Shown piece after piece: positions 12,380-62,655 of a DNA stretch of 64,000 nucleotides. Position 1 is the stretch's first letter; each line of letters starts with the position of its first letter. A program made the position numbers and the translations under genes. Origin of the DNA: an uncultured Actinomycetota bacterium (lineage in GTDB: Bacteria; Actinomycetota; Actinomycetes; Streptosporangiales; Streptosporangiaceae); NCBI GenBank assembly GCA_963727015.1, contig CAVSEV010000012.1, forward strand, positions 214,131 to 278,130, written 5' to 3'. The notes beneath the pieces were generated by a model. That model made no database searches and was not told where the DNA came from. It was given only the letters and a program-made list of their open reading frames with translations.

Positions 12380-12397
12380 CCACGCCCGCACGGGCCG

Positions 12398-13438: not shown

Positions 13439-13924
13439 GTGTCCCAGGGCGCGGTTCCGGCCTGGCCGGTCGAACGTGGAACACCGATGCAGAAGGTGAT
13501 CCCGCCTCGGCTGGTAGAGCCGTATCTCAACGGGCAGCGTACGGTCGTCGCCGGTTTCGTCTACCGGGCGAAGGACAGCGCGCTGCAGGACCCTGCCGAA
13601 CTCTACGACGCGCTGGACCTCGGTTACGAGGGGTCGGAGTTCAGGAGGGACATGCCTGAGGTGTACGTGCTGCGATGGCTCGCGAGGGACATCGACACGT
13701 ATCTGGTTCCCTACTCCACCCAGATGGGTGGCGACTGGCAAGACAAACCACCATTCAGCGGGACTGGTTTCACGTCCTCCCGCCGCCACGTCGTCGCCGA
13801 GTTCTACACGGGACCGACGTGTGTACCTGTTGGCGCGGAGATGTACCGGATCACCCCCTCGGGGGAAGAGTTCATTGCCCAGTACGACGGACGGACCTGG
13901 TTGCGGCCGCCGAGGGAGGTTTGA
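13439..13924 (+). CDS. Hypothetical protein (partner of the downstream repeat protein, 3-nt spacer)
   Basis: 161 aa with a non-low-complexity composition (YVLRWLARDIDTYLVPYSTQMGGDWQDKPPFSGTGFTSSRRHVVAEFYTGPTCVPVGAEMYRITPSGEEF). Shadow ORFs on the minus strand are judged spurious. Confidence 0.45.
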   Translation: MSQGAVPAWPVERGTPMQKVIPPRLVEPYLNGQRTVVAGFVYRAKDSALQDPAELYDALDLGYEGSEFRRDMPEVYVLRWLARDIDTYLVPYSTQMGGDWQDKPPFSGTGFTSSRRHVVAEFYTGPTCVPVGAEMYRITPSGEEFIAQYDGRTWLRPPREV

Positions 13925-13927
13925 GTC

Positions 13928-16624
13928 TTGCGTTACCGGCTGATGGCGACCTACCGCGGAGTCTCCTATGAGGCTGCCATGGGTCCCACCGATGCCGACG
14001 TGGTCTTGTTCGCGTCGAGCCCGCCACACGCGGACTTCGGCTTCCAGGCCGCAGCCGGCTACTGGCGCAAGCGGATCAGCCGTGAGGCACTCGACGCGCT
14101 GTGGGAATCGCGGCCCGTCGGCCGGTACAGATCCGAACCATGTCTCGTGCTCGAGGAGATCGGGGACCGGCTGCACATCGCCCACCTCGGGCACGACGCC
14201 TACCGTGCGGAACGGCTCGGCTACTGGCAGGTCGACCGCGGTGCATACGAGGTGGTCGTGCCGCACGATGAAGTAACCGAACTCACGGATCAGCGGTTGG
14301 ACTATCCGGCGCGCAGGAACCTGGGTGAGGGGATACCCGATGCGTCGAAGTGCGATGAGCCGGCGGCCAGCCTTGAGGCCCCGCCCGCAGCCCAGGCGCC
14401 GTCCGCGGCAGCGCACGACCGGTCCTGGCGTGAGTTCGAGGCGCCGGGCCACGGCCCCGACCGCGGCAGCACGGAGCCGGGCCGCAACGACGGCTGGAAC
14501 GGATTCTCCGCACCGGGCGGCACGAGGGGCGTACAGGGCAGAGGGCGGCGCGGCGTCAGCGGCGCGCACGGCGGCGGCGGGCGCGGCGTCACCGCGCGCG
14601 ACTGGGACGATGCTGGGACGCTGAACGGAGCCGGTTACACGGGCCATCCGCCTTTCGCAAATGGTACCCATGCGCTGCCGCAACCCTCGCGGGGCGGCCA
14701 AGGGACACCGGCCGACGTGGATGGCACGGGGAATTCGAGCACGGGGAATTCGAGCACACTGAATTCGAGAACAGTGAATTCGAGCACAGTGAATTCGAGC
14801 ACGGGGGATTCACGCGCAGGGGATCCAAGGGCAGCGGATCCGACGGCAGCGGATCCGGCGGCAGGGGGCCCGAAGGCAGCGGATCCAAGAGCACGGCGCC
14901 GGAGAGCAGCGGGTCCGGCGGCTGGGGGACCGAAGGCAGGCGGACGAAGGGCAGGGGGACCGAGCGCAGGGGGACCGAGCGCAGGGGGACCGAGCGCAGG
15001 GGGACCGAGCGCAGGGAGACCGAGCCCAGCCGGTTCGAGCGCTGGGACACGCCAGCGCGGCACAGACCAGCCCGGCACAGACCAGCTCGGCACAGACCAG
15101 CCCGGCACAGACCAGCCCGGCACAGACCACAGCACAGACCAGCCCGGCACAGACCACGGCACAGACCAGCCCGGCACAGACCAGCCCGGCACAGACCAGC
15201 CCGGCACAGACCAGCCCGGCACAGACCAGCCCGGCACAGACCAGCCCGGCACAGACCAGCCCGGTCAGAGCCGTCGCAACGCGGACGCAGGCGATGGTGC
15301 TGGCCGCGCCGCAGGGGAGAGCGTCGGCCCGGGCGGGATCGGGGAAGGCAGCAGCGCGCGCGGCCGGAGGGTCGCCGCAGGCCATCGCGCGGCGTGGGAA
15401 AGCGCGGACGAGCGGGCACTGGATGGCGCGGGCGAGCCGGGATCGGGCGAAGGTGCCCGGCAGGCGATGCCTGCGCACAGCGAAGCGGGACCCGGCGCGG
15501 GCGCACGCAGGCCTGGCGGTGGCGCGCACAGGTCCGGTTCCCCGCGGCCCGATGCCCTGGCCGGTCCCACGTCCCAGGAGGAGTTGTCAGGGACCGGCTG
15601 GACGGACGCGCAGGAAACCCGCGCCCAACCACGGCTCCCGAAGCGGCGGCGGGCCGAATCCACGCCGCTGCAGCCGCGGGTCCCTGACTCGGCAGGTTCG
15701 CCGCACGAGCCCGTGACCTTGCCACTGTCGCAACCGCCCGCGGTGGCCGAGGCGGCGGCACCGCCCGCCGCACTCCCATCGGAAGCATCCCCGCAAGGCC
15801 CGCCGCTGTCTGCGCCGTGGGAAGCGCCGCAGTTGGGGCCTCGGGTGGCGGCATCGTCCGCCGACCAGCCCCCGCCGACCGCCGCAGAGCCCTCGGCGCC
15901 TGAGCGGCCATCCACCGCCCGGCCATCGCGCGCCGAGCTAGCCACGGCCCGGCCATCCACCGCCCGGCCATCGCCCGCCGAGCTAGCCACGGCTCGGCCA
16001 TCCCCCGCCGAGCTATCCGCGGCCCGGCCATCCGCGGCCGAGCCATCCGCCGGATCGCTGGCTCCCCCGACGCCGTTCGTGCCGCGGCGACCCGCACAGC
16101 GCGAAGCCGGGCTGCCCACGTCAGGGCAGATCTCCGTCGACCCCTCGTCTGGGCCTGCCTCGTCTGGGCCTGCCTCATCTGGGCCTGCCTCATCTGGGCC
16201 TGCCTCATCTGGGCCTGCCTCATCTGGGCCTGCCTCATCTGGGCCTGCCTCATCTGGGCCTGCCTCATCTGGGCCGCTGCCTCGATACTCGCCAGGGCGC
16301 GACCTCGCCGGACCCACTGGCACGGACGTACCTGGCGCGCCTGGTGGCCGGCGCAGGCGGACCCGGGTGGAGACTCGCTGGGTCTTCAAGGACCTCATTG
16401 ACATGGCCGCGATACCGCACGGCTCCTACGCCGTGGACGAGGAGATAGACGGTGCGCTGTGCCTGATCAAGACCGACGACGGATACGAGGTGTTCATCGC
16501 GACTGATGGCGCCAAACACGAGGTTCGGTTCTTCGACGACGAGGAAGCCGCGTATTTCTATCTGTTCGGCGTGCTTGCCGCGGAGGCGATCCGCGGCGGC
16601 CGGCTGGTGCCGCAGACACAATAA
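13928..16624 (+). CDS. Large hypothetical protein: two globular terminal domains flanking about 600 aa of multiple distinct pentapeptide tandem-repeat arrays
   Basis: 898 aa. N-terminal domain [20 protein letters not shown]...[16 protein letters not shown] and C-terminal domain [75 protein letters not shown] look folded. The middle is arrays of (STGNS/TVNSS), (SAGGP), (GTDQP)x about 14, (ARPS-AEL), (SGPAS)x9, encoded by 15-nt DNA repeats. Confidence 0.5.
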
Positions 16625-27755: not shown

Positions 27756-28553
27756 TCAGGCTCCCTGCGGCGTGCCCGCGCTTCGCGGCGCGGCTTGGGC
27801 CGTGGATGGCGCGGCGCACAAGGTACCCGACGCGGCGCGCACCGTCTGGATGACCGAGTCGTACCCGGCGATGTCTGCGCAGTGGTGGCTGTCGCTGCCA
27901 GCAACCAGGCGCACGTCGGCCCGGGCGAGAGCGTCGACCGTGCGAGCCGATGGACATCTCCACTTCTCGTTTACCTCGACGAGCGCGCCCGCGCGTGCCG
28001 TCCGCTTAGCCAGGTGGCTGAGCAGCAACGGCGGAACCTGATCTTCGTTTAGGCCGATCTTGGGAAGCAGGCTGAACAGGTGCGCGACGAGGGCATGCTG
28101 CGCCGACGCGAGGGCATGCACGGTTGCCTCGACGAGGCATTCGATCGCCTCTTGCGCCGTCACGTCGCCGCTGCCGATCGCCGCGCGCATTTCGGCCGGG
28201 TGAACGGGGCCGCGGTCGGCGGGGAACCTGTGATCAGCGATCAGGAGAAGGTCGATACCGTCGGCAGCATCGAGGCAGCCGACGCCGGGGGGGACATCGA
28301 GCCGGCCTGAGGAGTCCAGAATCTTGGCCTCGAGGCCAGCCAGGACCCGGGGCAGGGAAAGGGACCGGTACACGGACACGGCCGCGACGAAATCGGGAAC
28401 CCACGCCGTGTCGCTGCGTACGTGGTCGGCCAGGCAGAGGGTGCGCAGCTGACGGTCGCGCGCGACCCGCACGTTCTGCGCCAGGGTGCTCGCACCGTCC
28501 GAGAACGTCGAATGGACGTGGTAATCCTCGTCGAGCTCGACACGGATAGTCAT
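27756..28553 (-). CDS. PHP-domain metal-dependent phosphoesterase (CpsB/histidinol-phosphatase-like)
   Basis: 265 aa. DYHVHSTFSDGAST, CLADHV, LLIADHRFP, LVAGSDSHH are PHP His/Asp metal ligands. Confidence 0.6.
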   Translation of the reverse strand: MTIRVELDEDYHVHSTFSDGASTLAQNVRVARDRQLRTLCLADHVRSDTAWVPDFVAAVSVYRSLSLPRVLAGLEAKILDSSGRLDVPPGVGCLDAADGIDLLLIADHRFPADRGPVHPAEMRAAIGSGDVTAQEAIECLVEATVHALASAQHALVAHLFSLLPKIGLNEDQVPPLLLSHLAKRTARAGALVEVNEKWRCPSARTVDALARADVRLVAGSDSHHCADIAGYDSVIQTVRAASGTLCAAPSTAQAAPRSAGTPQGA

Positions 28554-29560
28554 GTCGGCACCGGCTCGGCGGATTCGAGGACGTCGGCGAGCTCGACGAA
28601 GCGCTCATCGAGGAAGCGCACCACGGCAACTTCGCGGAAGCCGACGTGCGCGGGTACCGGCCTGCCGAGCAGCGCATCGAGGGCGAGCCTCGGCATGTCG
28701 ACCCCGCTCGCAATGGTCAGCGGAAGCGTCCCCGGCATCCGAGGGTTCACCTCGAGCAGCGCCGGGCAGCCCGCGCGGTCGCGCCTGCACTGGACGTTGG
28801 CGACATAGGTCAGGCCAGTGGCGCGGGCGACGTCGTGGCCGAACTTTTCGAGTTCGGCGTCGTGGACCGTCCGGCCGGCGATCGAGACACCGGAGTCGAC
28901 GCGCACCCTGATGCGCGGCACGGCCGCGATCACATGCCCGCGGCAGTCGGCGAGCACGTCGATGGAGTACTCCGCGCCAGGAAGGAATTCCTGAACGATC
29001 AGGTCCGCCGATCGTTCAATCGCGGCGAGCGCCGACGCGGACTCGACCGTCACGATGCCGCGAGATCCGCTGCCCGTGCGGGGCTTGACCACTACCGGAT
29101 AGGTCCAGGTGGCTGGTTCGACGGCGGAGCCGAACGGTTCGGTGCGCGGTACGTGGACGACGCCCGCGAGGTGCCTGGCGAGCGACAGCTTGTCGAGAGT
29201 GATGTCAAGCGCGCCAGCGGGTGCGAGCAGTAGCCCAATGCCTGCCGCCGCGAACGCCGCGCGGGCGGCGGCCAGCGGCCGCAGCTCAGCGTCGACGGTC
29301 GGCAGCACTATGCCCACTCCGAGTGCAACGCACCTAGCCAGCAGCGATTCGGCGAAATCCGGCGCGCAGCCCGCCGGGATCAGCGTCCGGGCGCCCTGCG
29401 GGACGAGGTAGAGGCCGGCGGCCCACCGATCCATGTCGGCCGCGACCAGCTCGATCGTTTCGTCGGCGCGCAGCGACTTCATGGCGCTGATCGCTGCGGG
29501 GCCGCCGGCGCCTGTGACCAGGACGCGCAGCCTGCGGCGACCACCGTAAGGCCTGCTCAC
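28550..29560 (-). CDS. ATP-grasp domain ligase
   Basis: 336 aa. PVVVKPRTGSGSRGI (P-loop-like Lys), LIVQEFLPGAEYSIDVL, LEVNPRMPGT (the E-x-N catalytic pair). Confidence 0.7.
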   Translation of the reverse strand: MSRPYGGRRRLRVLVTGAGGPAAISAMKSLRADETIELVAADMDRWAAGLYLVPQGARTLIPAGCAPDFAESLLARCVALGVGIVLPTVDAELRPLAAARAAFAAAGIGLLLAPAGALDITLDKLSLARHLAGVVHVPRTEPFGSAVEPATWTYPVVVKPRTGSGSRGIVTVESASALAAIERSADLIVQEFLPGAEYSIDVLADCRGHVIAAVPRIRVRVDSGVSIAGRTVHDAELEKFGHDVARATGLTYVANVQCRRDRAGCPALLEVNPRMPGTLPLTIASGVDMPRLALDALLGRPVPAHVGFREVAVVRFLDERFVELADVLESAEPVPT

Positions 29561-30705
29561 GTCCGGCCCGCCGCCTCCGGACCGGTGCGGGCCCGGCGCC
29601 CGGCTTGCGACCGGGCGCGCCTGGGCGAGCCAGGGTGATCGTCATTCGCTGGCCGGATGGCCGCGCGATCACGGATGGCCTCGAACGCCTCTGCGTGGTT
29701 TCCTTCGCAGAACCGTGACCAGTAGCGGGCAGTCGAGGCGATGAGGTCGGGTTCCAGGTAGTCGCGCACGGCGAACTGGGAGGCGAACATTTCGATGGCC
29801 TCGAGCTTGCGGCCAACGTGATTATCGATGGTCACGAAGTGCGTCGGGCGGAAGTCGACCGTGGCAGAAGGGGACTGGAAGCAGTAGACCCGCCCGATCC
29901 GCCGCGTCGCCACCATCGCCGCGCGGTGAGTGTTCCTGTGGTCCTGATGGACATCATGGATGGAATGGGTGTAGACGGTGGTCGGCTGAACCGCCGCGAT
30001 CACGTCATCGATCACCGCTATGGTGGGATTCCCCTCCCGGATGTGGGTGTCTTCGAGGTTCTCGAGAAAAAGGCGCGCGCCGATGAGGCCGGCCGCTTTC
30101 TCCGACTCGCCAGCGCGCTGCGCCTCTATGCCTCCGCCCGCGCCGTGGGACAGCGTCAAGATCGACACCGAGTCGCCCGCGGCCTGGTGAGCAAGCAGCG
30201 CGCCTGCCGCGCCGATCTCCACGTCGTCGGGGTGCGCGCCGATCGCAAGGACACTCTCGCTGCCGGTGGATCCCGCTATCCTGCCTCGCTCGACCAGCGT
30301 GGCCGCCGTGGCGATGAGATCGTCCGGACGGATGGGTTTCTGCAGGAACTCCGTGACGGGCATCCGCAGGGCCGTGACGGCTCGATCCACGGTCGCGTGG
30401 GCGGTGACCACGGCCACCGGCAAGGTGGGCCGGAGGCGGCGCACGCGCTCGACGAGCTCAAGCCCGGACAGGCCCGGCAGCTCGATGTCGGCGACCACCA
30501 GGTCCCACGGCTCGGTTTCGATGTACCGCAGCCCGGCAACCGGATCCAGCACGTGCCTGACCTCGAAACCACCCCGCACCCGCAGGACGAACGTGGCAAA
30601 CCGGCCGAACGCGGGATCGTCGTCGATCAGCAGAACCCGCGCACGAGCCGACATCCGCTCACTGGCTTGCATGTGCCCCCGCATCACCCGTTGCACACCA
30701 TGCAC
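29557..30705 (-). CDS. Response-regulator receiver (REC) domain fused to a PIG-L/LmbE-family N-deacetylase
   Basis: REC: VLLIDDDPAF...DLVVADIELPGLSGLEL...VAVVTAHA...FLQKP, with the phospho-acceptor Asp, Thr and Lys present. PIG-L: VLAIGAHPDDVEIGAAGALL...HSIHDVHQDH, Zn ligands. Confidence 0.75.
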   Translation of the reverse strand: MHGVQRVMRGHMQASERMSARARVLLIDDDPAFGRFATFVLRVRGGFEVRHVLDPVAGLRYIETEPWDLVVADIELPGLSGLELVERVRRLRPTLPVAVVTAHATVDRAVTALRMPVTEFLQKPIRPDDLIATAATLVERGRIAGSTGSESVLAIGAHPDDVEIGAAGALLAHQAAGDSVSILTLSHGAGGGIEAQRAGESEKAAGLIGARLFLENLEDTHIREGNPTIAVIDDVIAAVQPTTVYTHSIHDVHQDHRNTHRAAMVATRRIGRVYCFQSPSATVDFRPTHFVTIDNHVGRKLEAIEMFASQFAVRDYLEPDLIASTARYWSRFCEGNHAEAFEAIRDRAAIRPANDDHPGSPRRARSQAGRRARTGPEAAGRT

Positions 30706-30742
30706 AAAGATACCAGTCAGCCATCACAGAGTGTCTGATCGA

Positions 30743-33259
30743 TTACTTTAAGTGTGATTCAGTCTGCCCGGCGGCACTTTCGGCCGTGCCCGCCGAGTCG
30801 CCGGCCGAGTCGTCCGCCGGGCCGGCTGGCGGGCCGCCCGCTGGGGCGCCAGCGGTCCTGCCCTTCCATACGCCGCCGCGCCCGGCCCGGTACTGGCGGG
30901 CTGAGTCGAGGGTCATCGCGGCGTACATGAGCGCGACAACCGGCAGCGCCGCCGCACGCAGCGGCGAGAGCCGGTAAAGCCGCAGCACGGGCAGGTAGGT
31001 GACCGCCATGATCAACCAGCCCGCTAGGCCGGAGACGGCGCACCACAACGCGGGCGGGCCACCACCCGCCGCCACGCCGGTCAAGCCAGCGAGCGCCGCG
31101 ACCGGTGGGATCAGGTAGAACCACAGCAGGCCCACGATCGTGCAGCCGAGCAGGGCCGGCGAGTAGCGCAGCTGGTAGTAGGCACTGCGGGTGACCATTT
31201 GCCACAGTTCTGCGAGCCGGGGGTAGGGGCGACGGCTGACGACGGCCGTGCTGAATCCCAGCCAGCACCTGCCGCGCCCGGGCGAACGCTTGATCAGGTG
31301 CCCGAGCGCGACGTCGTCGATCAACGCGCCGCTGATCTGCCGCATCCCGCCCGCGGCCGCGAGCGCCTGACGGCGCACCAGCATGCAGCCCCCGGCCGCC
31401 GCGGCGGTCCGCCCGCCCGGCCGGTTCACCCGCCTGAACGGGTAAAGCTGAGCGAAGAAGTAGACGAACGCGGGCACCAGGGCACGCTCCCAGGCGGTCT
31501 CGGCGCGTAGCAGCGCCATTTGCGAGACCAGGTCGCGCTCATCGCCCACCGCGGCGGTCATCAATGCCGTGAGCGTCCCCTGCCTGTAGGCGATGTCGGC
31601 GTCGGTGAACAGCACGTACTCACTGTCGGGCGCCGCACGGATACCTTGCTCCATGGCCCACACCTTGCCTGCCCAGCCGGCTGGGCGGCGCTCTCCAGCT
31701 ACCACGCGCAGCGGCCGCCGGTGCGGGCCGGCGAGCGCGGCTGCCACCCGGGCCGTGCCGTCAGTGCTGCGATCATCCACCACCAGTACCTCGAGCTTGC
31801 CCGGATAGTCCTGTGCGAGCAGGGTCGGCAGGGTGGCAGGCAGGATCTCGGCCTCGTCGCGCGCGGGGACGACCGCGACGACCGCGGGCCAGCGCGCCGC
31901 GTCCTCGCCGTGCGCGCGCGCCACGTCCACGCCGTCGCGCCCGCCGCGGCGGCGGGGCAGGCGCTGGCCGGTCCGCCAGTAGCCGCCGTGCGCCACCAGC
32001 AGGTATATCCAGGCGACGGCCGCGACGACAGCGGCAGCGGCGAGAACGGGCACCACGCTGCTAGTTAGCGCCTGTCCCGCCGGTCGGGGGGCGCGGCCGG
32101 CCGGTCCCGCAGGTGCGGCCGGCCGGTCGGGGGGCGCGGCCGGCAGGCGGCCGGGGCCCGGGGCGGCTGGCCGCTCGGGTGAGGCGGCGAGGTTCTTCTT
32201 GACCAGATCGAGAATGGTCACGCCCTGGGCGACAAGACCGGCGGCTATCTCACCGAGGCCATCGGAGCCGTTCAGCACGCTCAGGTTGGCGCCGGCCAGA
32301 CCGCCCGCAGCCTCCTTGACGATCTGCGGCAACTGGTCGATGAGCATCCGGTCGAGCGCGACGCGATCGTAGGACGCTGCCGCCTCGGCCTGAACCTTCA
32401 TCCGCTCCGCCTCGGCCTGAGCGAGGATGCGCACCCGCTCAGCGTCCGCTTGCGCGGGCTTCACGACCTCAGCGACCAGTTGCTGCTGGCGCAACTCGGC
32501 CTGACGCTGCGCAAGTTCGGTCTGCGCCGCGATGACCGCGCGCTGGGTGTCCGCCTGGGCGAGCGGACCGGCCTGCGCCGCCTCGGCCTGCGCCTTGTCC
32601 ACCTCCGCCTTGTACTGGGCCTGCACGACAGCCGTCTGGCGCGCATACTCCGCCTGCTTGCGCTGTGACTCCTGCTCGGCCTCGGCCGCCGCCTGGTTGG
32701 CCTGGGCCTGCGCGATCTTCGCCTGCCGCTGGATGGCCGAGACATGCGGGGCGGCCATCGCATCGATGTAGCCGGTCCCCATGTCGTCGATGGACTGGAT
32801 CTGCAGCGAGTCGACGATCAGGCCGATCTTGGCCATCTCGGCCTTCGAGCCATCCAGCACCTCGGTCGCGAGCTTCTGCCGCTCGGTGACGATCTCCTCG
32901 ACGGTCATCGAGCCGATGATCGAGCGCAGGTGCCCGGCGAAGATCCGCCCGGTCAGCACCGACATCTGATCCTGATCGGACAGGAACCGTTGTCCCGCGT
33001 TGACGATGCTCTCCTCGTCGTTGCCGACCTTGAAGGCGATAACAGAACGGACATTCACCGAAATGCCCTGGCCGGTGACGCAGGTTTCCGCGACCTCGGC
33101 CTCACACATGGCCAGGGTCAGGAAGCTTGCCTTGCGGAAGCCGGGGACAACGAAGGCACCATGGCCGGTGACGACCCGGAATGGTGTGCCGTCGCGGCCA
33201 CGCCTGCCGCCGGCGATCAGCATGGCTTCGTCGGGTGCGGGCACGCGGTAACCAAACAT
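30743..33259 (-). CDS. SPFH/band-7 (flotillin-like) domain fused through a Pro/Ala linker and TM helix to a GT2 glycosyltransferase domain
   Basis: 838-aa single ORF. Residues about 1-380 are SPFH plus a flotillin-type coiled coil (KIAQAQANQAAAEAEQESQRKQAEYARQTAVVQAQYKAEVDKAQAEAAQ). Then PERPAAPGPGRLPAAPPDRPAAPAGPAGRAPRPAG, a TM, then GT2 (VVAVVPARDE...VLVVDDRSTDGT...GWAGKVWA...FTDADIAY) and C-terminal TMs. Confidence 0.65.
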   Translation of the reverse strand: MFGYRVPAPDEAMLIAGGRRGRDGTPFRVVTGHGAFVVPGFRKASFLTLAMCEAEVAETCVTGQGISVNVRSVIAFKVGNDEESIVNAGQRFLSDQDQMSVLTGRIFAGHLRSIIGSMTVEEIVTERQKLATEVLDGSKAEMAKIGLIVDSLQIQSIDDMGTGYIDAMAAPHVSAIQRQAKIAQAQANQAAAEAEQESQRKQAEYARQTAVVQAQYKAEVDKAQAEAAQAGPLAQADTQRAVIAAQTELAQRQAELRQQQLVAEVVKPAQADAERVRILAQAEAERMKVQAEAAASYDRVALDRMLIDQLPQIVKEAAGGLAGANLSVLNGSDGLGEIAAGLVAQGVTILDLVKKNLAASPERPAAPGPGRLPAAPPDRPAAPAGPAGRAPRPAGQALTSSVVPVLAAAAVVAAVAWIYLLVAHGGYWRTGQRLPRRRGGRDGVDVARAHGEDAARWPAVVAVVPARDEAEILPATLPTLLAQDYPGKLEVLVVDDRSTDGTARVAAALAGPHRRPLRVVAGERRPAGWAGKVWAMEQGIRAAPDSEYVLFTDADIAYRQGTLTALMTAAVGDERDLVSQMALLRAETAWERALVPAFVYFFAQLYPFRRVNRPGGRTAAAAGGCMLVRRQALAAAGGMRQISGALIDDVALGHLIKRSPGRGRCWLGFSTAVVSRRPYPRLAELWQMVTRSAYYQLRYSPALLGCTIVGLLWFYLIPPVAALAGLTGVAAGGGPPALWCAVSGLAGWLIMAVTYLPVLRLYRLSPLRAAALPVVALMYAAMTLDSARQYRAGRGGVWKGRTAGAPAGGPPAGPADDSAGDSAGTAESAAGQTESHLK

Positions 33260-33269
33260 CTCTCATCTC

Positions 33270-54103: not shown

Positions 54104-56164
54104 TCAAATCAGCTCGAGCGGATCGATCTGCACGCGCAGCCGTTCGGGATCCCTGCGGGCGCACCGTGCGGCCTGCGCCTCGGCAAGGGCGCGAGCGAGC
54201 TGCGTGCCCGCCGGCCGCGGCACCCGCACGAGCAGACGGTTCTGCTCGCCTTCCACCGGCCGGTCATGGCTGACAGGAACGGGGACGGGCCCGAGAACCT
54301 CCGCGCCACCCGGCAGCCTGACGTCGGCAAGCAGCTTGCGCAGGGCCTCGGCGCTACCAGTGACGGACGCCATCCGGACAGCGGGCGGGAAACCCAGCTC
54401 CGCCCGGTCGGCAAGCTCGCGCTGCGCGTGGGTGACTGGATCCCAGCGGATGAGCGCCTGGACCTGGCGCAGCCCCGCGTCTGCGAGCACCACCACGATG
54501 CCACCGCCGGTGCGCGGCCGGACAAGGGCGGTGGCGTTCATCCACCTGCGCAGCGCCTCCTCTCCCGCCCGCAGGTCGGCGCGGCCGGCCAAGGCATGCG
54601 CGTCAAGCAGGAGCGCCGCGGCGTAACCGGCCTCCGCGGCCGGTTCTGCGCCCGGGGTCGCGACCACGAGCGCCGGCGTCGCAGGCACGCTGACCAGCCG
54701 TGCGTCGCCGCCCGACAGCCGGACGGCCGCGCCAGGGAACGCGCGACCGAGTTCCTCCGCGGTCCGCCTGGCACCGGTGACGAGGGCACGGATTTCGGTG
54801 GCCTCGCACCGCGGGCAGCGCCAGCCTGCCGCCACGCGGCCGCACCACCTGCAATGCGCGGCAGCGCCGGAGGATTCGAGCGCAAGCGGGCCGCCGCAGC
54901 CCGCGCAGCGGGCCTGCTCGCGGCACCGTGCGCAGCCGATCGCCGCCAGGTACCCGCGCCTTGGCACCTGGACGAGCACCGGGCCACGTGCCAGCGCGTC
55001 TCTGGCCACCCGCAGGGCCACGCTCGGCAGCCTGGCCGCCCTGGCTGCCTCGTCCCTGGCAAGCTCGCTGTCGTCACCTGCCGCGCGGATCGCGGGCAGC
55101 AGCCGGCGCACCTCCACCCGGTCGGCGCGGAGTGTGCGGGCCCAACCGGCCTCAACGAGTTGCGTCATCTCCGCCGTGCGGGAAAAGCCGCCGATCAAAG
55201 CGGCAGCGCCGCAGCGATGCGCGCGCAGCGCGAGCACCTCGCGCGCGTGCGGGTAGGGTGCGCGCCGTTCTGCGTGCAGATCGTCGCCGTCGTCCCAGAG
55301 GACGACCAGGCCGAGGTCACGCACAGGGGCGAACATCGCGGCCCGGGTGCCAGCGACGACACGCACGTCGCCGCGAGCCGCCGCGAGCCAGCGCTTGTAC
55401 CGCTGCGCCGGGCCCAGGTCGGCGCTCAGGGCGACGTGCCGGCCGGATCCGAGCTCCGAGGTGAGCGCGGCGTCGACGCGCGCCAGGTCCGCGGCCGCTG
55501 GCACCACCACAACGGCGCCGCGGCCGGCGCCCGCCGCGGCTGCGGCCGCGACCGCGATGGCCCGCGGCCAGCCCTGACCTGGCAGCGCCGACCACGCGGC
55601 GCGGGGACCGTGGCCGGCCGCGACTGCCGCGAGGAACGCGGCACCGGTGGGATAGCGCGCCCATGGGCCAGGGTGAGGGACCGCGCGCGCTCCGTATCCG
55701 CCGTTGGCTCCGTGCCCCGCGCTCGGCGGCGCCAGCTCATGGGAGACGGAGGATGGCCGCGCCTCCGCTGCCGCGTGCCGCGGCGGGATCGCGAGCCTCA
55801 GGACGTCGGCAAGGGTACCCGCGTAGTGATCGGCGACCGCCCGGGCGAGCCCGGCGACCTCGGCTGTGAGCACCGGCTCGGGGGACACGACCCGCTCGAG
55901 GAAGGCGAGCCTGCCGGAGTGGGTGCTGCTTGCCGCGCGCTCGAGCAGGTAGCCGTCGGTGAGCTTGCCCGCGAATCTGACCCGGACCCGGGATCCGGGC
56001 ACGGCCGCGCCCGCGAACCGCTCGGGCACCAGATAGTCGAACGGGCGGTCGAGGTGGGTGAGCGGCACGTCAACGGCTACCCGTGCGACCGGCAACTCCG
56101 CGGCCTGTGTGCGCGCGGCCGGCTTGCGCGGCTGACGTCGCCTGGCTGGCATTACCTGAGGCAC
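54104..56164 (-). CDS. priA: Primosomal protein N' (replication-restart helicase PriA)
   Basis: 686 aa. N-terminal 3'-DNA-binding domain, helicase core, Cys4 zinc-binding insert (CARCREQARCAGCGGPL...CRWCGRV...CPRC), C-terminal domain. Confidence 0.85.
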   Translation of the reverse strand: MPQVMPARRRQPRKPAARTQAAELPVARVAVDVPLTHLDRPFDYLVPERFAGAAVPGSRVRVRFAGKLTDGYLLERAASSTHSGRLAFLERVVSPEPVLTAEVAGLARAVADHYAGTLADVLRLAIPPRHAAAEARPSSVSHELAPPSAGHGANGGYGARAVPHPGPWARYPTGAAFLAAVAAGHGPRAAWSALPGQGWPRAIAVAAAAAAGAGRGAVVVVPAAADLARVDAALTSELGSGRHVALSADLGPAQRYKRWLAAARGDVRVVAGTRAAMFAPVRDLGLVVLWDDGDDLHAERRAPYPHAREVLALRAHRCGAAALIGGFSRTAEMTQLVEAGWARTLRADRVEVRRLLPAIRAAGDDSELARDEAARAARLPSVALRVARDALARGPVLVQVPRRGYLAAIGCARCREQARCAGCGGPLALESSGAAAHCRWCGRVAAGWRCPRCEATEIRALVTGARRTAEELGRAFPGAAVRLSGGDARLVSVPATPALVVATPGAEPAAEAGYAAALLLDAHALAGRADLRAGEEALRRWMNATALVRPRTGGGIVVVLADAGLRQVQALIRWDPVTHAQRELADRAELGFPPAVRMASVTGSAEALRKLLADVRLPGGAEVLGPVPVPVSHDRPVEGEQNRLLVRVPRPAGTQLARALAEAQAARCARRDPERLRVQIDPLELI

Positions 56165-56289: not shown

Positions 56290-56470
56290 GAATGCGCGGC
56301 ATCTGTGCAATCGAAACTTCGGGCACTCGAAACCTCGGGCACTCGAAACTTCGGGCACTCGGAAACTTCGGGCACTGGAAAACTTCGGGCAATCGAAACT
56401 GCGGGCAATCGAAACTGCGGGCAATCGAAACTCGGGCAATCGAAACTCGGGCAATCGAAACTGCGGCGGC
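56290..56470. repeat. About 10 tandem copies of a 17-18-bp unit (ACTCGAAACTTCGGGC, then AATCGAAACTGCGGGC variants) between priA and the PAS gene
   Basis: Two sub-families of units in tandem. AT-richer than surroundings. Confidence 0.8.
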
Positions 56471-56523: not shown

Positions 56524-57714
56524 TCAGTCTTGCTTCGCCGACGCGGCCTTCTGCAGCTGATCTTGGTTCTCATCAACAGGGTCAGCAGTGCCCTCGCTGC
56601 CAGGAGTGTCAATGCGGTCCATGATCAGGATCACCCCGTGGATCATCCCGTCCTCGCCGCGGAGCAGGCTGCACGCCACCCGCAGCTGCACAGGCCGGCC
56701 CCGCCGGTTGACGGCGTCGACTGTCGCATCACTGCCCTCTGCCCGCTCGGTAAGCATCCGCTGTAGCAGCGGCACGATCTGCTGCACAGGCAGGCCGATA
56801 TCGAGCGTGAGCAGGTGCCTGCCGTCCGCCTCGTCCGCGCGAAGCCCCCACAGCTCCTCGGCGCCTGGGCTCCACACCCGCACCCGCAGATCCTCATTCA
56901 CCACGATGACCGCGCTGCCAAGGCTGCGAAGCACGGAGCCGAGAAATCCGTTCGCCGCGTCGAGCTGCTCGGTCCGCACGCGCAACACGTCGTTGATCGC
57001 CTGCAGCTCGTCGTTAGTCGACTGCAGTTCCTCGTTCATCGTCTCGAGTTCCTCGTTAGTGGACTGCAGTTCCTCGTTTGTGGTCTCGAGTTCCTCGTTA
57101 GTGGACTGCAGTTCCTCGTTGGTCGTCTCCAGCTCCTCGTTCAGCGACTGCAGCTCTTCGTAGGCCCGCTCGAGATCCTGGTTGGAGCGCTCAAGTTCGT
57201 CCCGCAGCCTGCGGTTACGTGTCACGTCGACGAAGCTGATCCCGACGCCGACCAGTTCGTCCGCGTCGCTCACGAGCGGGACGACCGCGACGTCGAGCAC
57301 CGCGGGCTCTGCGCCCAGGCCTCGGTGCCAGGTCACGTCGGTCAGCTCGACGGCGCGCTTGTCCTTCTTCACCTGTTCGATCACCGACCGGAGCTCTATC
57401 GGGCGGTACGAGACCTCGAGATCTTGAAACAGCCTGCCCACATCGCGCGCGTGCAGGTTAAACAGGTTCCCGGCGCGAACGTTGACCACCGCGAGCTTGC
57501 CCGCCTGGTCTATTGCGAACTGCGCGACGGGCCCGGCGGCAAGCGCCGCGGCCTCGAGCCCGGCTGGGGCCGAACTGCTCGTCGGTGCCGTACTGCGCCG
57601 CTGCCCGCGGGACGTCGCCCGGGCCCACGCCCGGAATCTTACGGAACAGGCGCTTGCGCAGGTCGACCGGTTCGAACCGGTCGCCGTGATTGAGCAGCAT
57701 CTCGGCCTTGCCAA
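56524..57714 (-). CDS. PAS, coiled-coil (EELQSTNEELETTNEEL heptads), PAS protein; 5' end overlaps the CheR gene by about 250 nt (possible frameshifted CheR-PAS fusion)
   Basis: PAS1 from about 57570 (LAAGPVAQFAIDQAGKLAVVNVRAGNLFNLHARDVGRLFQDL). Then NEELQS/NEELET repeats, then PAS2 (LRSLGSAVIVVNEDLRVRVWSPGAEELWGL). No start codon between the CheR stop (57458) and PAS1 except the ORF start at 57714. Confidence 0.6.
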   Translation of the reverse strand: MARPRCCSITATGSNRSTCASACSVRFRAWARATSRGQRRSTAPTSSSAPAGLEAAALAAGPVAQFAIDQAGKLAVVNVRAGNLFNLHARDVGRLFQDLEVSYRPIELRSVIEQVKKDKRAVELTDVTWHRGLGAEPAVLDVAVVPLVSDADELVGVGISFVDVTRNRRLRDELERSNQDLERAYEELQSLNEELETTNEELQSTNEELETTNEELQSTNEELETMNEELQSTNDELQAINDVLRVRTEQLDAANGFLGSVLRSLGSAVIVVNEDLRVRVWSPGAEELWGLRADEADGRHLLTLDIGLPVQQIVPLLQRMLTERAEGSDATVDAVNRRGRPVQLRVACSLLRGEDGMIHGVILIMDRIDTPGSEGTADPVDENQDQLQKAASAKQD

Positions 57715-58474
57715 GGAAGAGGTAACCCTGGCTGGTCAGCGCGAAGTGGAACTTGCGGATGACGTTCGCCTGCGCTTCTGCGGTGAAATACATAAGCGTG
57801 TTGCGCGCGACAAGCAGGTCGACGCGCGAGATCGGGGCATCCCTGGTCAGGTCGTTGCGGCCGAATATTACCTGCCTACGCAGGTCGCGGCGGAATGAGT
57901 ACCGCGTCCCCGCGGGTTCGAAGTACTTTTCCCTAAGCTCGTCAGGAACCTCGGCGACCTGCCGCTCCGTATACGTTCCCGCGCGTGCCTGCTGAAGGGC
58001 ATCCTCGTCGAGATCAGTGGCGTAGATTTTCGCTCGGTGGCTGAAACCCTCGGGTCCAAGCGCCTCGGCGAACAGGATCGCCAGCGTGTATGCCTCCTCA
58101 CCAGTGGCGCAGCCCGCGCTCCAGATCCGGATGGGCCTTGCGGTTCCTTTCGTGGCCAGCAACTGGGGCAGTATCTCGTCGCGCAGCGCTTCCCAAGCGG
58201 GCGGGTCGCGGAAAAAGCCGGTCACATTGATGAGGACGCTGTCGAAGAGTCTCCCGAACTCATCCGGTTCCAATTCGAGGTAATCGCGGTACTCGCCGAC
58301 CGACTGCAGTCCGCGCGCGTCCATCCGGCGGCTGATCCGCCGCTGCAGCGTTGATCTCTTGTAACCGGTGAAGTCGAATCCGCGGGTCTCCTTGAGCATC
58401 AAAAGGAGTTCGTCGAAATCGTGGTCCACGTCGCCCGGCACGTCGGTAAGCGTACGCCGGCCAGTTCGCGTCAC
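57458..58474 (-). CDS. CheR-type protein-glutamate O-methyltransferase
   Basis: ELLLMLKETRGFDFTGYKRSTLQRRISRRM (CheR N-domain), IRIWSAGCATGEEAYTLAILF (SAM-binding). The last about 45 aa (GVGPGDVPRAAAQ...) look out of frame or non-native. Confidence 0.8.
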   Translation of the reverse strand: MTRTGRRTLTDVPGDVDHDFDELLLMLKETRGFDFTGYKRSTLQRRISRRMDARGLQSVGEYRDYLELEPDEFGRLFDSVLINVTGFFRDPPAWEALRDEILPQLLATKGTARPIRIWSAGCATGEEAYTLAILFAEALGPEGFSHRAKIYATDLDEDALQQARAGTYTERQVAEVPDELREKYFEPAGTRYSFRRDLRRQVIFGRNDLTRDAPISRVDLLVARNTLMYFTAEAQANVIRKFHFALTSQGYLFLGKAEMLLNHGDRFEPVDLRKRLFRKIPGVGPGDVPRAAAQYGTDEQFGPSRARGRGACRRARRAVRNRPGGQARGGQRSRREPV

Positions 58475-58542
58475 ACACCCCGGACCTACGCACCGGCGCT
58501 ACCACCCGCTTGGGTCCTGCGAAGACCTGCCGTTTGCCGTTG

Positions 58543-59688
58543 TCAAGCGTTCTCTGCGTCGTCTGTGTGCTCAGCGTTACCTGTCGCGCCTTTGGCAGCT
58601 ACGTTATCTGTGTTATCTGTGTTATTGGTGCTTCTCGCGTTATCTGCGTTCTTCGCGTTATCTGTGTTCTTCGCGTTGTCCGTGTTTTTCGCGTTGTCTG
58701 CGCTTTCCGTGCTTGGCGGCGGGGCTTGCGACGCTCGGCTGGCCTGCGCCGCGTCCCGAGCCTGGTCGGCAGCCTTCCTGAAGGTCGCCGCGGAGACCCA
58801 GTACCCTCTGCGCTCGGCCGATTCTGCCAGTTCCCTAGTGAGCCGCGAGCGTTCTTCCAGGCGCAATGTGGCCGACGACCTGGCGCGCTCGACCGCGGCC
58901 GAGCGCTCGCCGGAAAGGCGCGCGGGCGACCACGAATGGCCGGACCCGCACTCGTAACTCAGCGGTGCGGCGCCGTGCTTGTCGCTGCGTAACGGCCCAC
59001 CGCAGTCGGGACAAGTGAGGCCGGTCGCCGCACCGGCGGCAGGCGGCGGATTGAGGAGTACGGCGACGTAGCGCTCGAGCTCAGGGTCTGCCGGCTGCGT
59101 GACAGGCTCAACCGGGATGCGGCATTGCTCGTCGAGGAATTGGGCGATCTGGCGGATCTTGAGGACAGCCGCCCGCGTGGTCACGGCGAGCGCGGCCCGT
59201 GGCATTCCGGTGTACGGGCTCTCCGCTGGGTCTTGGATGGCGACCATCCCGTCGTGCCGCTCAATAGCGGCACAGCCCACGGCGCCGTCGTCAAGCGTGC
59301 CGCTCAGCACCACACCAATGACGCGCGGCCCCTGTGCGAGCGCGGAGCTGCGGAACAGCGGATCAGCCGCGGGACGGTGCCCGTGCTGCGGCGGGCCAGC
59401 GGACAACCGGACCTGGTCGCCGACCACAAGCATGTGCCTGTCCGGCGGGGCAATGTAAAGCCGGCCCGGGCGCAGTTCCTCGCCATCGACCGCCGCGCCG
59501 GCCCGCAGACGACCGGCCCTGTTCATGATCCTTGGCAGCGCACGGCCGCCTGTTGCCGGGACGTGCAAGATGATGAGGATGGGCGAGGGAAAGTCGGCGG
59601 GAAGGCGGGAAAGCAGCGCCTGCAACGCCTCTATGCCACCTGCTGACGCGGCGACCACCACGGTCCTGCGTCCGAGGTTCGATCCCAT
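58543..59688 (-). CDS. CheB-type methylesterase domain protein (no receiver domain) with a C-terminal Cys/His zinc-ribbon-like region and an (ADNAKNTDN)n tail
   Basis: From MGSNLGRRTVVVAASAGGIEALQ...ILIILHVPA...DGMVAIQD (the CheB Ser-His-Asp catalytic region), then CPDCGGPL...YECGSGHSWS. Tail encoded by 18-nt repeats (58590-58700). Confidence 0.75.
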   Translation of the reverse strand: MGSNLGRRTVVVAASAGGIEALQALLSRLPADFPSPILIILHVPATGGRALPRIMNRAGRLRAGAAVDGEELRPGRLYIAPPDRHMLVVGDQVRLSAGPPQHGHRPAADPLFRSSALAQGPRVIGVVLSGTLDDGAVGCAAIERHDGMVAIQDPAESPYTGMPRAALAVTTRAAVLKIRQIAQFLDEQCRIPVEPVTQPADPELERYVAVLLNPPPAAGAATGLTCPDCGGPLRSDKHGAAPLSYECGSGHSWSPARLSGERSAAVERARSSATLRLEERSRLTRELAESAERRGYWVSAATFRKAADQARDAAQASRASQAPPPSTESADNAKNTDNAKNTDNAKNADNARSTNNTDNTDNVAAKGATGNAEHTDDAENA

Positions 59689-59762
59689 CTTCGGCTCACA
59701 CTCTCTATGGCCATCCTTCAGCTGGGGCCATGCACGCCCGACGGCGCTGTCGGGCGCACATC

Positions 59763-60299
59763 TCAATCATCGCCGATCGGCGGAATGCCTGGCGCGGGGT
59801 CCTGCTCACCAAGCGCACCCGCGGCTTCGCGCTCCGCCACAGCCCAGCCGCGATGCATGCGGGCCCTTTCGCCGTATACGGCGCTTCCGCTGACGCCGCT
59901 GATCGCAAGTTCCTCGAGCTTGGCGGCGGTGCGATCGTGGGCAACCGCGGCGCGAAGGTGTGCGGACGCACTTCGGTCAGCCGCCTCGCTCGCGCGCTCC
60001 TGCGCGAGGCGCACGTAGTGCGCCGCACGGCCAACCTGCTCGGGCGTCGAACCCTTGCCCATCCGGGCGTCTTCCATCCGCTGGTTACGCTCATGCAGAT
60101 CACGAATGCGGTCGTCAATCTGCAGCGCCCGCAACCGGACGTGCTTGGCGGCATCAACCGCGCGGCCCGCGCCGTCGCCTCGTTCAGCGCCGTCGCGTTC
60201 TTGAGCGCAGCCGCGTTTTTGAGCGCCGCCGCGTTTCTGTGCGCGGTCGCCTCGTTCAGCGCCGTCGCCTGGTTCAGCGCGCTCGGCACCATGCATTAG
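59763..60299 (-). CDS. Hypothetical coiled-coil protein with an N-terminal repeat region
   Basis: ...RAVDAAKHVRLRALQIDDRIRDLHERNQRMEDARMGKGSTPEQVGRAAHYVRLAQERASEAADRSASAHLRAAV. Plus-strand alternative (59730..60299) judged less protein-like. Weak call. Confidence 0.3.
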   Translation of the reverse strand, partial: LMHGAERAEPGDGAERGDRAQKRGGAQKRGCAQERDGAERGDGAGRAVDAAKHVRLRALQIDDRIRDLHERNQRMEDARMGKGSTPEQVGRAAHYVRLAQERASEAADRSASAHLRAAVAHDRTAAKLEELAISGVSGSAVYGERARMHRGWAVAEREAAGALGEQDPAPGIPPIGDD

Positions 60300-60529
60300 T
60301 CTGTTACCTCTGTTATCGCTGCTATCTCTGTTATCGCTGCTATCTCTGCGACCGCAATCCCTGGCGGCCCCTGGCCTCCAAGCTAGACCACTCATCACGG
60401 TCACAAGTGATACCGGCGCGGATCTGCGCGGCTAGTGCCATGGGACCCATACCTGGTCACACGCACGCCGAGCCGTGTGACAGGCGGATCACCTCCACCC
60501 GGGTCACGCGGTGAGGCCCGCTTCCTGGA

Positions 60530-60691: not shown

Positions 60692-61280
60692 CGGGCCACT
60701 CTCCTGAGTGCTACCCGGATCGACCACGCCCACATCACGGCAACGGGGCGGGGCCAAACCCTTCGTGCATAGTACGTCAGGGAAGGCCGCGGCCAAAGGA
60801 ATGCGCGCGGGCAGCCCCGGCCGCACGGGCAGCCCGGCCACGCGGGCAGCCCCGGCCACGCGGACAGCCCCGGCAAGGCGGCGGGCGGCCCTGCCAGGTG
60901 ACTCGACGGCGCTGGCTGCCGTCGTCTACCCTGCCGTACCTGCGCAAGCCCCCGGTCCGGCTTGATCCCTCAGCGGCATCAAGATCACCAGCGGCAGATC
61001 GGGCGAGATGAGCCGCATGGGGTCATGATCGCCGACGGAACCGGCGGGACATGATGTCTACCCAAAGAGATCATCCGCCGCCTCAGAGCGGTACGCGGCC
61101 CGTCAGGGAATCGAGCCTTACAGTCCGCTGGATGCGGGCTGTCACCGGGATCCGTGCTGTCACCGGGATCCGTGCTGTCACCGGGATCCGCGCTGCCACC
61201 GGGCACGCGCTGCCACCGCGCACGCTGCCACCGGGCACGCGCTGCCACCGGATGCCGACTGCTGGCGGGGCTGCTGCTAC

Positions 61281-61466
61281 GGCGTAGCAGATCTCGGTGG
61301 ATGCGGGCCGTGCTCCAGGCAGCCATCCGGCAAGGCCCTGCTTGTTCTCGAGGAGTCGACAGTGGAACTATCGACGACGACAGTGCCATCCACAACCCCG
61401 GTCGTCCGGCTGGGGTCGTGGGCGGCACCTTCGCGCCGCCAAAGATCTGCCGGGATGCGCCCTAGA
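61281..61466. mobile_element. MITE/REP-like element, full copy E
   Basis: GGCGTAGCAGATCTCGGTGGATGCGGGCCGTGCTCCAGGCAGCCATCCGGCAAGGCCCTGCTTGTTCTCGAGGAGTCGACAGTGGAAC...GCGCCGCCAAAGATCTGCCGGGATGCGCCCTAG. Sits between the small ORF and the metK 3' end. Confidence 0.6.
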
Positions 61467-62655
61467 TGTGGGCTGCTGCGCGAAGTGCCTCGACCCGGTC
61501 GGTGCGCTCCCAGGAGAAGTCGGGCTCCTCGCGGCCGAAATGACCGTAGGCGGCGGTCTGGGAGTATATCGGCCGCAGGAGATCAAGATCACGGATGATG
61601 GCCGCGGGGCGAAGATCGAAGACCTCGAGCACGGCACGCTGGATCACGTCCACCGCGACGTGTTCTGTGCCAAAGCACTCGACGAACAGCCCCACCGGCT
61701 TGGCCTTGCCGATGGCGTATGCGACCTGCGTCTCGCACCGATCGGCCAAACCTGCGCCAACGACGTTCTTGGCCACCCAGCGCATCGCGTACGCGGCGCT
61801 GCGGTCCACCTTGGACGGGTCCTTGCCGGAGAAGGCTCCTCCCCCGTGCCTGGCCATGCCGCCATAGGTATCGATGATGATCTTCCGGCCTGTCAGGCCC
61901 GCGTCACCCATCGGCCCACCGATCTCGAATCGCCCGGTGGGATTGACGAGCAGCCGGTAGTTGTCCGTGTCAAGCTCGATTCCGTCGAGTATGGGGGTGA
62001 CCACAAGCTCGCGGACGTCGGGCGCGAGCAGCTCGCGCAGGTCAATATCGGGCGCATGCTGGGAGGAAACCACCACGGTGTCAAGCCGGATCGGTTGCGC
62101 ACCGTCATATTCGATGGTGACCTGGGTCTTGCCGTCCGGGCGCAGGTAGGGGACGACCCCGTTGCGCCGCACCTCGGTGAGCTGCTTCGCGAGCCGGTGC
62201 GCGAGCATGATCGGCAGGGGCATCAGTTCCGGCGTCTCACGGGAGGCATAGCCGAACATCAGGCCCTGGTCACCAGCGCCTTGCTGGTCGAACTCGTCGG
62301 TGCCCTCGCCCTCTCGCCGTTCGTAGGCGTCGTCTACCCCCTGGGCGATGTCCGGTGACTGTGCCCCGATCGAGACCGAGACACCGCAAGAGGCCCCGTC
62401 ATAGCCCTTGGCGGAGGAGTCATAGCCGATCTCCAGGATCTTGTCCCTGATGATCCCTGGAATGTCGACGTAGGTCTTGGTGGTGACCTCGCCCGCGACG
62501 TGTACCTGGCCAGTTGTGATCAAGGTCTCAACGGCAACCCGGCTCCGCTGGTCATCCTTGATCATCGCATCGAGAATGGCGTCACTGATCTGGTCAGCCA
62601 TCTTGTCCGGGTGGCCTTCCGTGACCGACTCGGAAGTAAAAAGGCGACGTGACAC
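61462..62655 (-). CDS. metK: S-adenosylmethionine synthetase
   Basis: 397 aa. [30 protein letters not shown]...[12 protein letters not shown]...[19 protein letters not shown]. Confidence 0.95.

Follow-up and report, generated by a model that had tools for sequence, protein, structure and literature searches.

The window analysed here, a stretch of 64,000 nucleotides from an uncultured actinomycete of the Streptosporangiaceae (positions 214,131 to 278,130 of contig CAVSEV010000012.1, GenBank assembly GCA_963727015.1), carries on its minus strand a module made up of a CheB-like methylesterase, a CheR-like methyltransferase and a protein in which a long coiled coil joins two PAS domains. The latter two are listed as separate open reading frames (ORFs). 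We conclude with good confidence that the CheR and PAS ORFs are one gene of a zinc-ribbon-cheB/cheR-PAS family, broken in the window by a private 1-nt insertion. The split represents either an assembly or base-calling error or a very recent inactivating mutation, two explanations that we weigh about equally; it is neither a new two-gene architecture nor a recoding signal. In annotation, the two ORFs should be treated as one frameshifted cheR-PAS gene. The practical result for the window is modest, and the parts worth pursuing are the conservation of the heptads in the coiled coil and the linkage of the module to STAS and sigma factor genes.

The module lies between priA (54104–56164) and metK (61462–62655) and consists of minus-strand ORFs. 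As listed, the CheB ORF (58543–59766, minus strand) has CheB_methylest as its only Pfam match (E 6.7e-51), followed by about 195 residues without a Pfam match. The CheR ORF (57458–58474, minus strand) matches CheR_N (E 8.8e-17) and CheR (E 3e-54), and the PAS ORF (56524–57714, minus strand) contains PAS_10, a coiled-coil helix of about 100 residues and a C-terminal PAS domain. The ORF list and Pfam agree in this with the first-pass annotation, made from the DNA letters alone, which described three separate ORFs of these kinds.

The CheR and PAS ORFs overlap by 257 nt (57458–57714) in different frames. Past about codon 305, the CheR ORF reads ARGRGACRRARRAV... and ends at the TAA at 57458–57460. 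The 34 arginine-rich junk codons of this out-of-frame read-through (57458–57560, minus strand) are, in the other frame, the start of PAS_10, and the first 48 residues of the PAS ORF are likewise junk-like. An overlap of about 250 nt and a junk-like CheR C-terminus had been noted before, and both descriptions are borne out. In a tblastn search with the homologous protein P0001, residues 1–294 align at 58441–57560 in frame −1 with 99% identity, and residues 295–638 align at 57558–56527 in frame −2 with 96% identity; the halves meet at 57558–57560. The frameshift site (57561–57563, minus strand) has GGG in the window and GG in relatives (CAGCCGGGCTCGAG versus CAGCC-GGCTCGAG). When one G is removed at 57561–57563, the result is a 649-aa protein that is collinear with its homologues and 97% identical to P0001. 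The earlier suggestion of an originally fused CheR-PAS gene with a 1-nt frameshift is therefore correct, and the site falls inside the interval proposed for it, 57560–57640.

Relatives of the window carry the unbroken form. DNA alignments show GG at the site in both L001 (95% DNA identity) and L082 (97.6%). In L082, a metagenome contig from the Joint Genome Institute (JGI), the gene is intact and its 649-aa product runs collinear with the window sequence after repair, and the contig of the metagenome-assembled genome (MAG) from which P0001 comes has the same metK … cheB – cheR-PAS – priA order. For wider comparison, a set of 80 loci was drawn from GTDB species representatives, with an overall identity to P0001 of 50–80%. 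All 80 match the cheR-PAS protein as a single stretch, in one chain of about 610–650 aa, and no homologue with a genuine separate PAS gene was found among them. The extra G is private to the window sequence, occurring in 0 of 82 relatives (the 80 loci plus L001 and L082). A metagenome scan with a 40-base pattern across the indel, allowing GG or GGG, gave no matches. Since the extra G is found in the window only, it must be an artefact or a recent mutation rather than a genuine split arrangement. A frame plot of G+C by codon position (GC3) over the 64 kb gives a similar picture, with 57540–57585 as the sole same-strand switch that does not fall at a gene boundary. The stop-to-stop overlaps at 3870–4120 and 27756–28005 were considered as further frameshifts and rejected; they are ordinary upstream open frames at gene boundaries.

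The interrupted gene can thus be described in two halves. The CheR half (57564–58474, minus strand) starts at GTG 58474 or GTG 58441 and comprises CheR_N (58274–58420), the CheR S-adenosylmethionine (SAM)-binding domain (57653–58228) and a linker. The PAS half (56524–57558, minus strand) comprises PAS_10 (57220–57540), the helix of about 100 residues (56929–57219) and the C-terminal PAS domain (56611–56937).

A programmed +1 ribosomal frameshift, or a pair of truly separate genes in which translation of the PAS protein begins at GTG 57489 or GTG 57441, would fit some features of the junction: the PAS frame is open for 257 nt 5′ of the CheR stop, both GTGs are in frame, and a rare CGA codon stands just after the site. 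We nevertheless regard such arrangements as extremely improbable, given that the frameshift is seen in 0 of 80 loci and is absent from two near-identical relatives, that no slippery or prfB-like motif is apparent, that neither GTG is preceded by a Shine-Dalgarno sequence, and that both lie within PAS_10, with homology to the single-chain protein reaching the indel. Recoding had been offered in the first-pass annotation as an alternative to a frameshift. It finds no support here, as the shift is unshared by the relatives at 95% and 97.6% identity and by the 80 genomes, would need to be of the +1 type, and coincides with no known shift motif. The accompanying statement that the PAS protein has no usable start past the CheR stop needs amendment. 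Between 57714 and the PAS_10 domain, the PAS frame does offer start codons, namely these two GTGs and no others, but both are internal to PAS_10 and lack a convincing ribosome-binding site.

The hand-joined CheR-PAS protein has more than 8000 homologues, with P0001 as the top match. The best 120 of these are single chains of 587–641 aa with CheR_N, CheR and PAS and no kinase, with one exception, P0073, a 1011-aa chain that fuses CheB with the CheR-PAS parts. With the PAS half as query, the 150 nearest representatives of 50%-identity clusters end right after the second PAS domain; the longer ones have an extra PAS domain or a fused CheB, and again no kinase. In about 70 of the 80 loci, the gene immediately upstream, in the same orientation, encodes the CheB catalytic domain with its tail, and CheB homologues are typically about 340 aa long. 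The family ranges over Actinomycetota (including several Mycobacterium species), Cyanobacteria and other phyla, and the location between metK and priA is common only to the window's clade, L001–L004. In these comparisons, a kinase-less cheR-PAS gene with a separate, receiver-less, zinc-ribbon cheB is the normal form of a very large family. The locus had earlier been viewed as a split, kinase-less derivative of CheB-CheR-PAS-histidine-kinase fusions; this view is not upheld, since the kinase-less two-gene form is the family standard. No kinase-bearing fusion turned up among the best 120 homologues or the longer of the 150 cluster representatives.

In databases, the family to which the window locus belongs appears as "CheR family methyltransferase", "PAS domain-containing protein" or, in the JGI/KEGG style, [quoted passage not shown], together with a "chemotaxis protein CheB" of about 340 aa. 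None of the NCBIfam models is dedicated to it, and literature searches found no experimental paper on it; the family is recognised in databases and, as far as these searches show, experimentally uncharacterised. Domain order, invariant heptads and a zinc-ribbon cheB upstream are common to the window and the family, with an identity of 97% to P0001 and L082 and of 50–80% to the 80 genomes. What sets the window apart is that the extra G breaks the gene, that an 18-nt tandem repeat adds length to the cheB tail, and that the STAS, RsbW-like and sigma factor genes found beside the module in 62 of 80 loci are missing. The window thus has the heptad run, the zinc-ribbon cheB upstream and the full cheR-PAS content, and departs from the family in single-chain integrity. 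We consider the window copy an ordinary family member, possibly broken.

Whether error or mutation, the frameshift is young. The gene has no secondary stops. When the window is compared with L001, the ratio of nonsynonymous to synonymous substitution rates (dN/dS) comes to 0.07 in the CheR half and 0.27 in the PAS half, as against 0.26 for priA and 0.09–0.15 for metK, fmt, def and rpe (metK 0.09). Branch-polarised changes are few and show no skew toward the window sequence, their counts being too small to tell a pseudogene from an intact gene.

There is, in our estimate, an even chance that the extra G is a base-calling or assembly error, in which case the organism's cheR-PAS gene would be intact and the module working. 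The insertion is private and the relatives at 95% and 97.6% identity carry GG; selection downstream of it is not relaxed (dN/dS 0.27). The extra G also lengthens a short G run within overlapping GCCGGC and CTCGAG palindromes, a kind of motif that, when methylated, is prone to errors in nanopore sequencing. Moreover, the nearest public genomes, which are long-read MAGs, also contain private frameshifts, in cheB and the upstream ORF in L001 and in priA in L003. Against an error stand the frame plot, which has no other unexplained switch in 64 kb, and the intact state of all 14 other genes common to the window and L001, so that the local error rate looks low. The same cleanness of the rest of the assembly argues for a genuine loss-of-function mutation of very recent date, which would make this accessory signalling gene a young pseudogene; we place this explanation a shade on the doubtful side of even. 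The module is indeed accessory, inserted between metK and priA in the window's clade only, embedded in variable tandem repeats, and beside a transposase in L001. All three frameshifts in the window and L001 fall in the 3.7 kb of the module and none in about 10 kb of housekeeping flanks, an outcome with an estimated chance of about 0.02. However, such clustering could equally reflect strain heterogeneity or poorer polishing in a repeat-rich region, and a mutation with no secondary lesions and no rise in dN/dS must be very recent. The absence of any other frameshift from the window weighs mildly against a generally error-prone assembly, favouring a real mutation, but the private frameshifts in the relatives' long-read MAGs keep an artefact plausible.

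In the relatives, the following was also seen. In L001/L002, from the closest public genome (MAG MFD02416.bin.1.262), a DDE_5 transposase at 6254–7747 separates metK from the module; the window lacks it. The private frameshifts of L001/L002 are at 8548 and 9363; the one affecting cheB falls in a run of C, the one affecting the small ORF upstream in a run of T. In the related MAG locus L003, priA is split over four frames (11968–13938). The frameshifts of L001 and L003 suggest either that these long-read assemblies have a visible indel error rate or that the module is decaying in the clade.

The helix between the two PAS domains contains the best-conserved stretch of the cheR-PAS protein, a block of heptads. 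An AlphaFold2 model of P0001 has a helix at residues 407–507, with a predicted local distance difference test (pLDDT) score of 96–98, between two PAS folds. In the window, this helix contains eight acidic heptads (56992–57162, minus strand; YEELQSL NEELETT NEELQST NEELETT NEELQST NEELETM NEELQST NDELQAI), which we propose as the methyl-accepting segment. Its 57 residues include 19 Asp or Glu and no Lys or Arg. Across 80 genomes, the mean pairwise identity is 94% in the EE-heptad segment, 65% in the CheR domain and 47–51% in the PAS domains, and 47 of the 57 heptad columns are at least 95% conserved. These figures support the description of the heptad block as a family hallmark in the first-pass annotation. 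Among 150 distant representatives, the consensus is N-E-E-L-[Q/E]-[S/T]-[T/M/A], usually in 7–10 copies. The underlying 21-nt periodicity of the DNA is only 76% matched; therefore, the conservation acts on the protein. We infer a register in which the Glu-Glu pairs occupy the exposed b and c positions, with Leu at d and Asn at a.

The two enzymes look competent, as far as conserved residues can indicate. The CheR domain aligns with Bacillus subtilis CheR (5FTW, E 4e-43), including its SAM-binding motifs, and the CheB_methylest domain (59134–59661, minus strand) covers model positions 1–174 of 174. The CheB catalytic triad S41, H68 and D160 (numbering of the 407-aa ORF) aligns with Ser164, His190 and Asp286 of 1CHD. 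The C-terminal PAS domain weakly resembles the haem PAS of EcDOS (E 2.6e-4).

The CheB protein has no Pfam match to Response_reg, its esterase domain starting at residue 10 counted from the ATG start. Behind that domain, a tail (58732–59133, minus strand) consists of a linker, a CCCH zinc ribbon (CPDCGG at 58996–59013 and CGSGH at 58936–58950) and a two-helix hairpin. In tail numbering, C41, P42, C44, C62, G65 and H66, that is, C-P-x-C … C-x2-G-H, are invariant in 55 of 55 aligned homologues. Both elements of the earlier description, a CheB lacking a receiver domain and carrying a Cys/His zinc-ribbon-like tail, are accordingly upheld. AlphaFold2 models the tail with a mean pLDDT of 89, as short strands followed by helices 70–108 and 112–133. 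The tail has no Pfam match, and a Foldseek search of the PDB gave no significant neighbour (best E 0.37), returning generic helical hairpins and a small zinc-finger protein. Near the 3′ end of cheB, Tandem Repeats Finder reports an 18-nt repeat of 5.5 copies (58602–58700, no strand assigned), which encodes a low-complexity tail of the ADNAKNTDN type. This array shows an 18-nt in-frame indel relative to L082; its copy number differs between strains. In the first hairpin helix (58780–58830), the window's clade reads ARSSAT where the family reads ALWAAV, with a Trp that is at least 90% conserved elsewhere. This departure, together with the frameshifts, may reflect relaxed constraint on the module in the window's lineage.

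No chemotaxis partners accompany these genes. Pfam matches for about 45 window ORFs and the annotation of the syntenic contig include no MCPsignal, CheW, CheA, HisKA or HATPase_c next to the module, and no MCP, CheA or CheW gene was found anywhere in the window, in line with the earlier remark that kinase, methyl-accepting chemotaxis protein (MCP) and CheA genes are missing nearby. When neighbouring ORFs of the 80 loci were clustered, no conserved chemotaxis-type family emerged, although no scan aimed at che genes was made. What does emerge is a set of STAS proteins. With a profile built from neighbouring ORFs, STAS domains are detected in 62 of 80 loci, from −4 to +2.5 kb of the cheR-PAS gene, at a density of 1.77 per 10 kb beside the module; the outer flanks of these loci have 0.20 per 10 kb, which makes the enrichment ninefold. 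Neighbours confirmed by Pfam include standalone STAS proteins and STAS+HATPase_c_2 proteins of the RsbW type, the latter encoded between cheB and cheR-PAS or just downstream. In 22 loci (within L022–L077, from Actinoplanes, Dactylosporangium, Pseudonocardia and Solirubrobacteraceae genomes), a third kind of neighbour, a fusion of sigma70 regions r2-r3-r4 with STAS that Pfam likewise confirms, is encoded on the opposite strand, about +2600 to +3900 from the cheR-PAS start. P0239 is a CheB fused to STAS and an AraC-type helix-turn-helix domain (STAS-HTH_18-CheB). Separately, several mycobacterial loci have a second cheB and an AraC-type regulator downstream.

Partner switching, as in RsbV/RsbW/SigB of Bacillus and in the STAS anti-sigma antagonists and RsbW-type kinases of actinomycetes, employs proteins of just these types, and the module clusters with such genes in most other lineages. 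This suggests that the module feeds a STAS/RsbW-like/sigma partner switch there. Known inputs into partner switching are PP2C phosphatases, stressosomes or kinases, and we know of no partner-switching system with a CheR/CheB methylation pair as its input.

Because the heptads are hyper-conserved and resemble a methylation consensus, and because STAS, RsbW-like and sigma genes are enriched beside the module, we infer a self-methylating device. We propose, tentatively and with somewhat less than even confidence in the mechanism as a whole, that the module works as a reversible switch based on glutamate methylation and independent of MCPs. In it, the fused CheR would methylate the exposed Glu-Glu pairs of its own acidic heptads, and the zinc-ribbon CheB would demethylate the same pairs. 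Methylation would neutralise charge and so alter the stability or register of the helix that joins the two PAS sensors, which in turn would change the interaction with a partner. The methylation state would be read by STAS, RsbW-like and sigma proteins where these are present. If the frameshift is real, the strain would produce CheR unattached, ending in 34 junk residues, and would probably lack the PAS protein altogether, and the switch would be dead.

Comparison with the CheR/CheB pair acting on MCPs in Escherichia coli, Salmonella and B. subtilis brings out both likeness and difference. The catalytic folds are homologous, with CheR_N and a SAM domain in CheR and a Ser-His-Asp esterase in CheB. 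A long helix bears Glu-Glu pairs at intervals of seven residues, the spacing of Tsr sites 297, 304 and 311, and the window heptads match the chemoreceptor methylation consensus except for Ser/Thr in place of Ala. In contrast, chemotaxis CheB has a receiver domain, whereas the module CheB has none and instead carries the CCCH zinc ribbon and helical hairpin; canonical CheR stands alone at about 280 aa, whereas the module CheR is fused to PAS–helix–PAS in all homologues. Chemotaxis systems encode MCP, CheA and CheW, none of which is in the module's neighbourhood, and scores for the NCBIfam equivalog models are far below cut-off: 95 bits versus 435 for NF007902 (CheR) and 138 bits versus 293 for the CheB models. 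The module helix is not homologous to the MCP signalling domain. CheR/CheB pathways with non-flagellar roles offer a further parallel, as they likewise do not serve flagellar taxis and have a CheR to which a further domain, for protein interaction or sensing, is fused. These alternative pathways, however, keep a chemoreceptor, CheA and CheW; the module has none nearby and appears self-contained.

It could be argued that the pair is a conventional chemotaxis adaptation pair whose MCP, CheA and CheW are encoded elsewhere in the genome, of which the visible DNA is 64 kb, since neither catalytic domain is damaged and their homology to the CheB and CheR of chemotaxis is clear. We hold this to be quite unlikely. 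A CheB without a receiver domain cannot take phosphate from CheA, and the equivalog scores just given speak against it as well. The genes conserved next to the module in the 80 loci are of the STAS, RsbW-like and sigma types, CheR forms one polypeptide with a hyper-conserved acidic helix of its own, and the module occurs in several Mycobacterium species, mycobacteria being non-motile.

The broadest form of the proposal is that the module is a self-contained switch without chemoreceptor, CheA or CheW, in which CheR has its own methyl-accepting helix, CheB provides the reset, and partner-switching proteins do the reading in most lineages, including the non-motile mycobacteria. The window would then hold a minimal copy, without STAS genes, that may be broken. 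We put this reading forward as a whole only as a doubtful possibility. Several observations weigh against the proposed mechanism and its output. No STAS domain is found in the six-frame translation of the window (profile search, E ≤ 10), and the nearest relatives, L002–L006, are also without an adjacent STAS gene; for the window's clade, the proposed output is unsupported. Position 5 of the heptads is Ser/Thr, not Ala as in the chemoreceptor consensus, and the Glu-to-Gln variation typical of chemoreceptor sites is rare, at 3–4% at either Glu position. MCPsignal is not among the Pfam matches of the PAS/coiled-coil ORF (E ≤ 0.01), so that only the short site motif is similar. The extreme conservation of the heptads could instead mark a binding surface for a partner. 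The AlphaFold2 monomer of P0001 has a predicted template modelling (pTM) score of 0.33, with part of CheR at low confidence, and says nothing about docking of the helix into the active site of CheR.

The wider interest is that of the family. CheR/CheB-type glutamate methylation is known almost only as chemoreceptor adaptation. Here, the enzymes occur without receptors or CheA nearby and are tied to a helix that is more conserved than the enzymes and resembles a series of methylation sites. If the proposal is true, it would explain what thousands of genes do that now bear the label "CheR family methyltransferase" or "chemotaxis protein CheB" in organisms such as mycobacteria and other actinomycetes, open a new input route into sigma-factor control, and amount to a chemotaxis-style adaptation or memory device governing transcription.

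The start of cheB and the gene upstream of it complete the locus. ATG 59688 is a likelier start than TTG 59766; it gives a cheB-like gene of 381 aa (58543–59688, minus strand) and matches the starts of the called genes in L001 and L082. Upstream, a small ORF (59763–60404, minus strand; 213 aa as listed) has a conserved helical part at about residues 86–213, and its stop overlaps the start of the listed cheB ORF. It has no Pfam or NCBIfam match. Homologues of its translation are encoded directly beside cheB in L025 (39%), L006 (33%) and L004, and weak homologues lie beside the module in L004, L006, L025, L060, L026 and L024. An antisense ORF, 59730–60299 on the plus strand, is the gene caller's choice in L001 and was rejected, having no homologues outside the near-identical L001/L002. 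The minus-strand ORF is preferred because distant homologues are found only for that strand, and to judge by them it is probably the third gene of the unit, co-directional with cheB. The layout of the locus is a small helical ORF – cheB (zinc ribbon) – cheR-PAS_10-coiled coil-PAS operon. Rfam, promoter and terminator scans of the module region gave nothing useful.

Tandem arrays flank or invade the module at 56307–56466, 58602–58700, 60169–60348, 60806–60874 and 61130–61251, with units of 16, 18, 17 and 9 nt. The first is a 16-nt array of 10 copies between the module and priA (no strand assigned) and is 101 nt shorter in L082. Two arrays differ from those of the 97.6%-identical L082 by these 101-nt and 18-nt indels, behaving as variable-number repeats.

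The rest of the window, which has a G+C content of about 70%, contains a housekeeping run of aroC-aroK-aroB, efp, nusB, hisG, riboflavin genes, rpe, rsmB, fmt, def, priA and metK. An ORF at 13928–16624 (plus strand, 898 aa, no Pfam match) has ordered N- and C-terminal parts around more than 500 residues of pentapeptide repeats (PGTDQ in about 14 copies, SGPAS in about 9, and AGGPS), which explain an AT-skew outlier of 0.33 at 14–16 kb. The ORF at 29557–30723 (minus strand), some 27 kb away from the module, joins a receiver domain, the window's only two-component-type domain, to a PIG-L-type de-N-acetylase. It adjoins an 839-aa fusion of SPFH/Band7 with a glycosyltransferase-2 (GT2) domain (30743–33262, minus strand), and the two ORFs cluster with another GT2 gene, an ATP-grasp gene and a PHP-domain gene.

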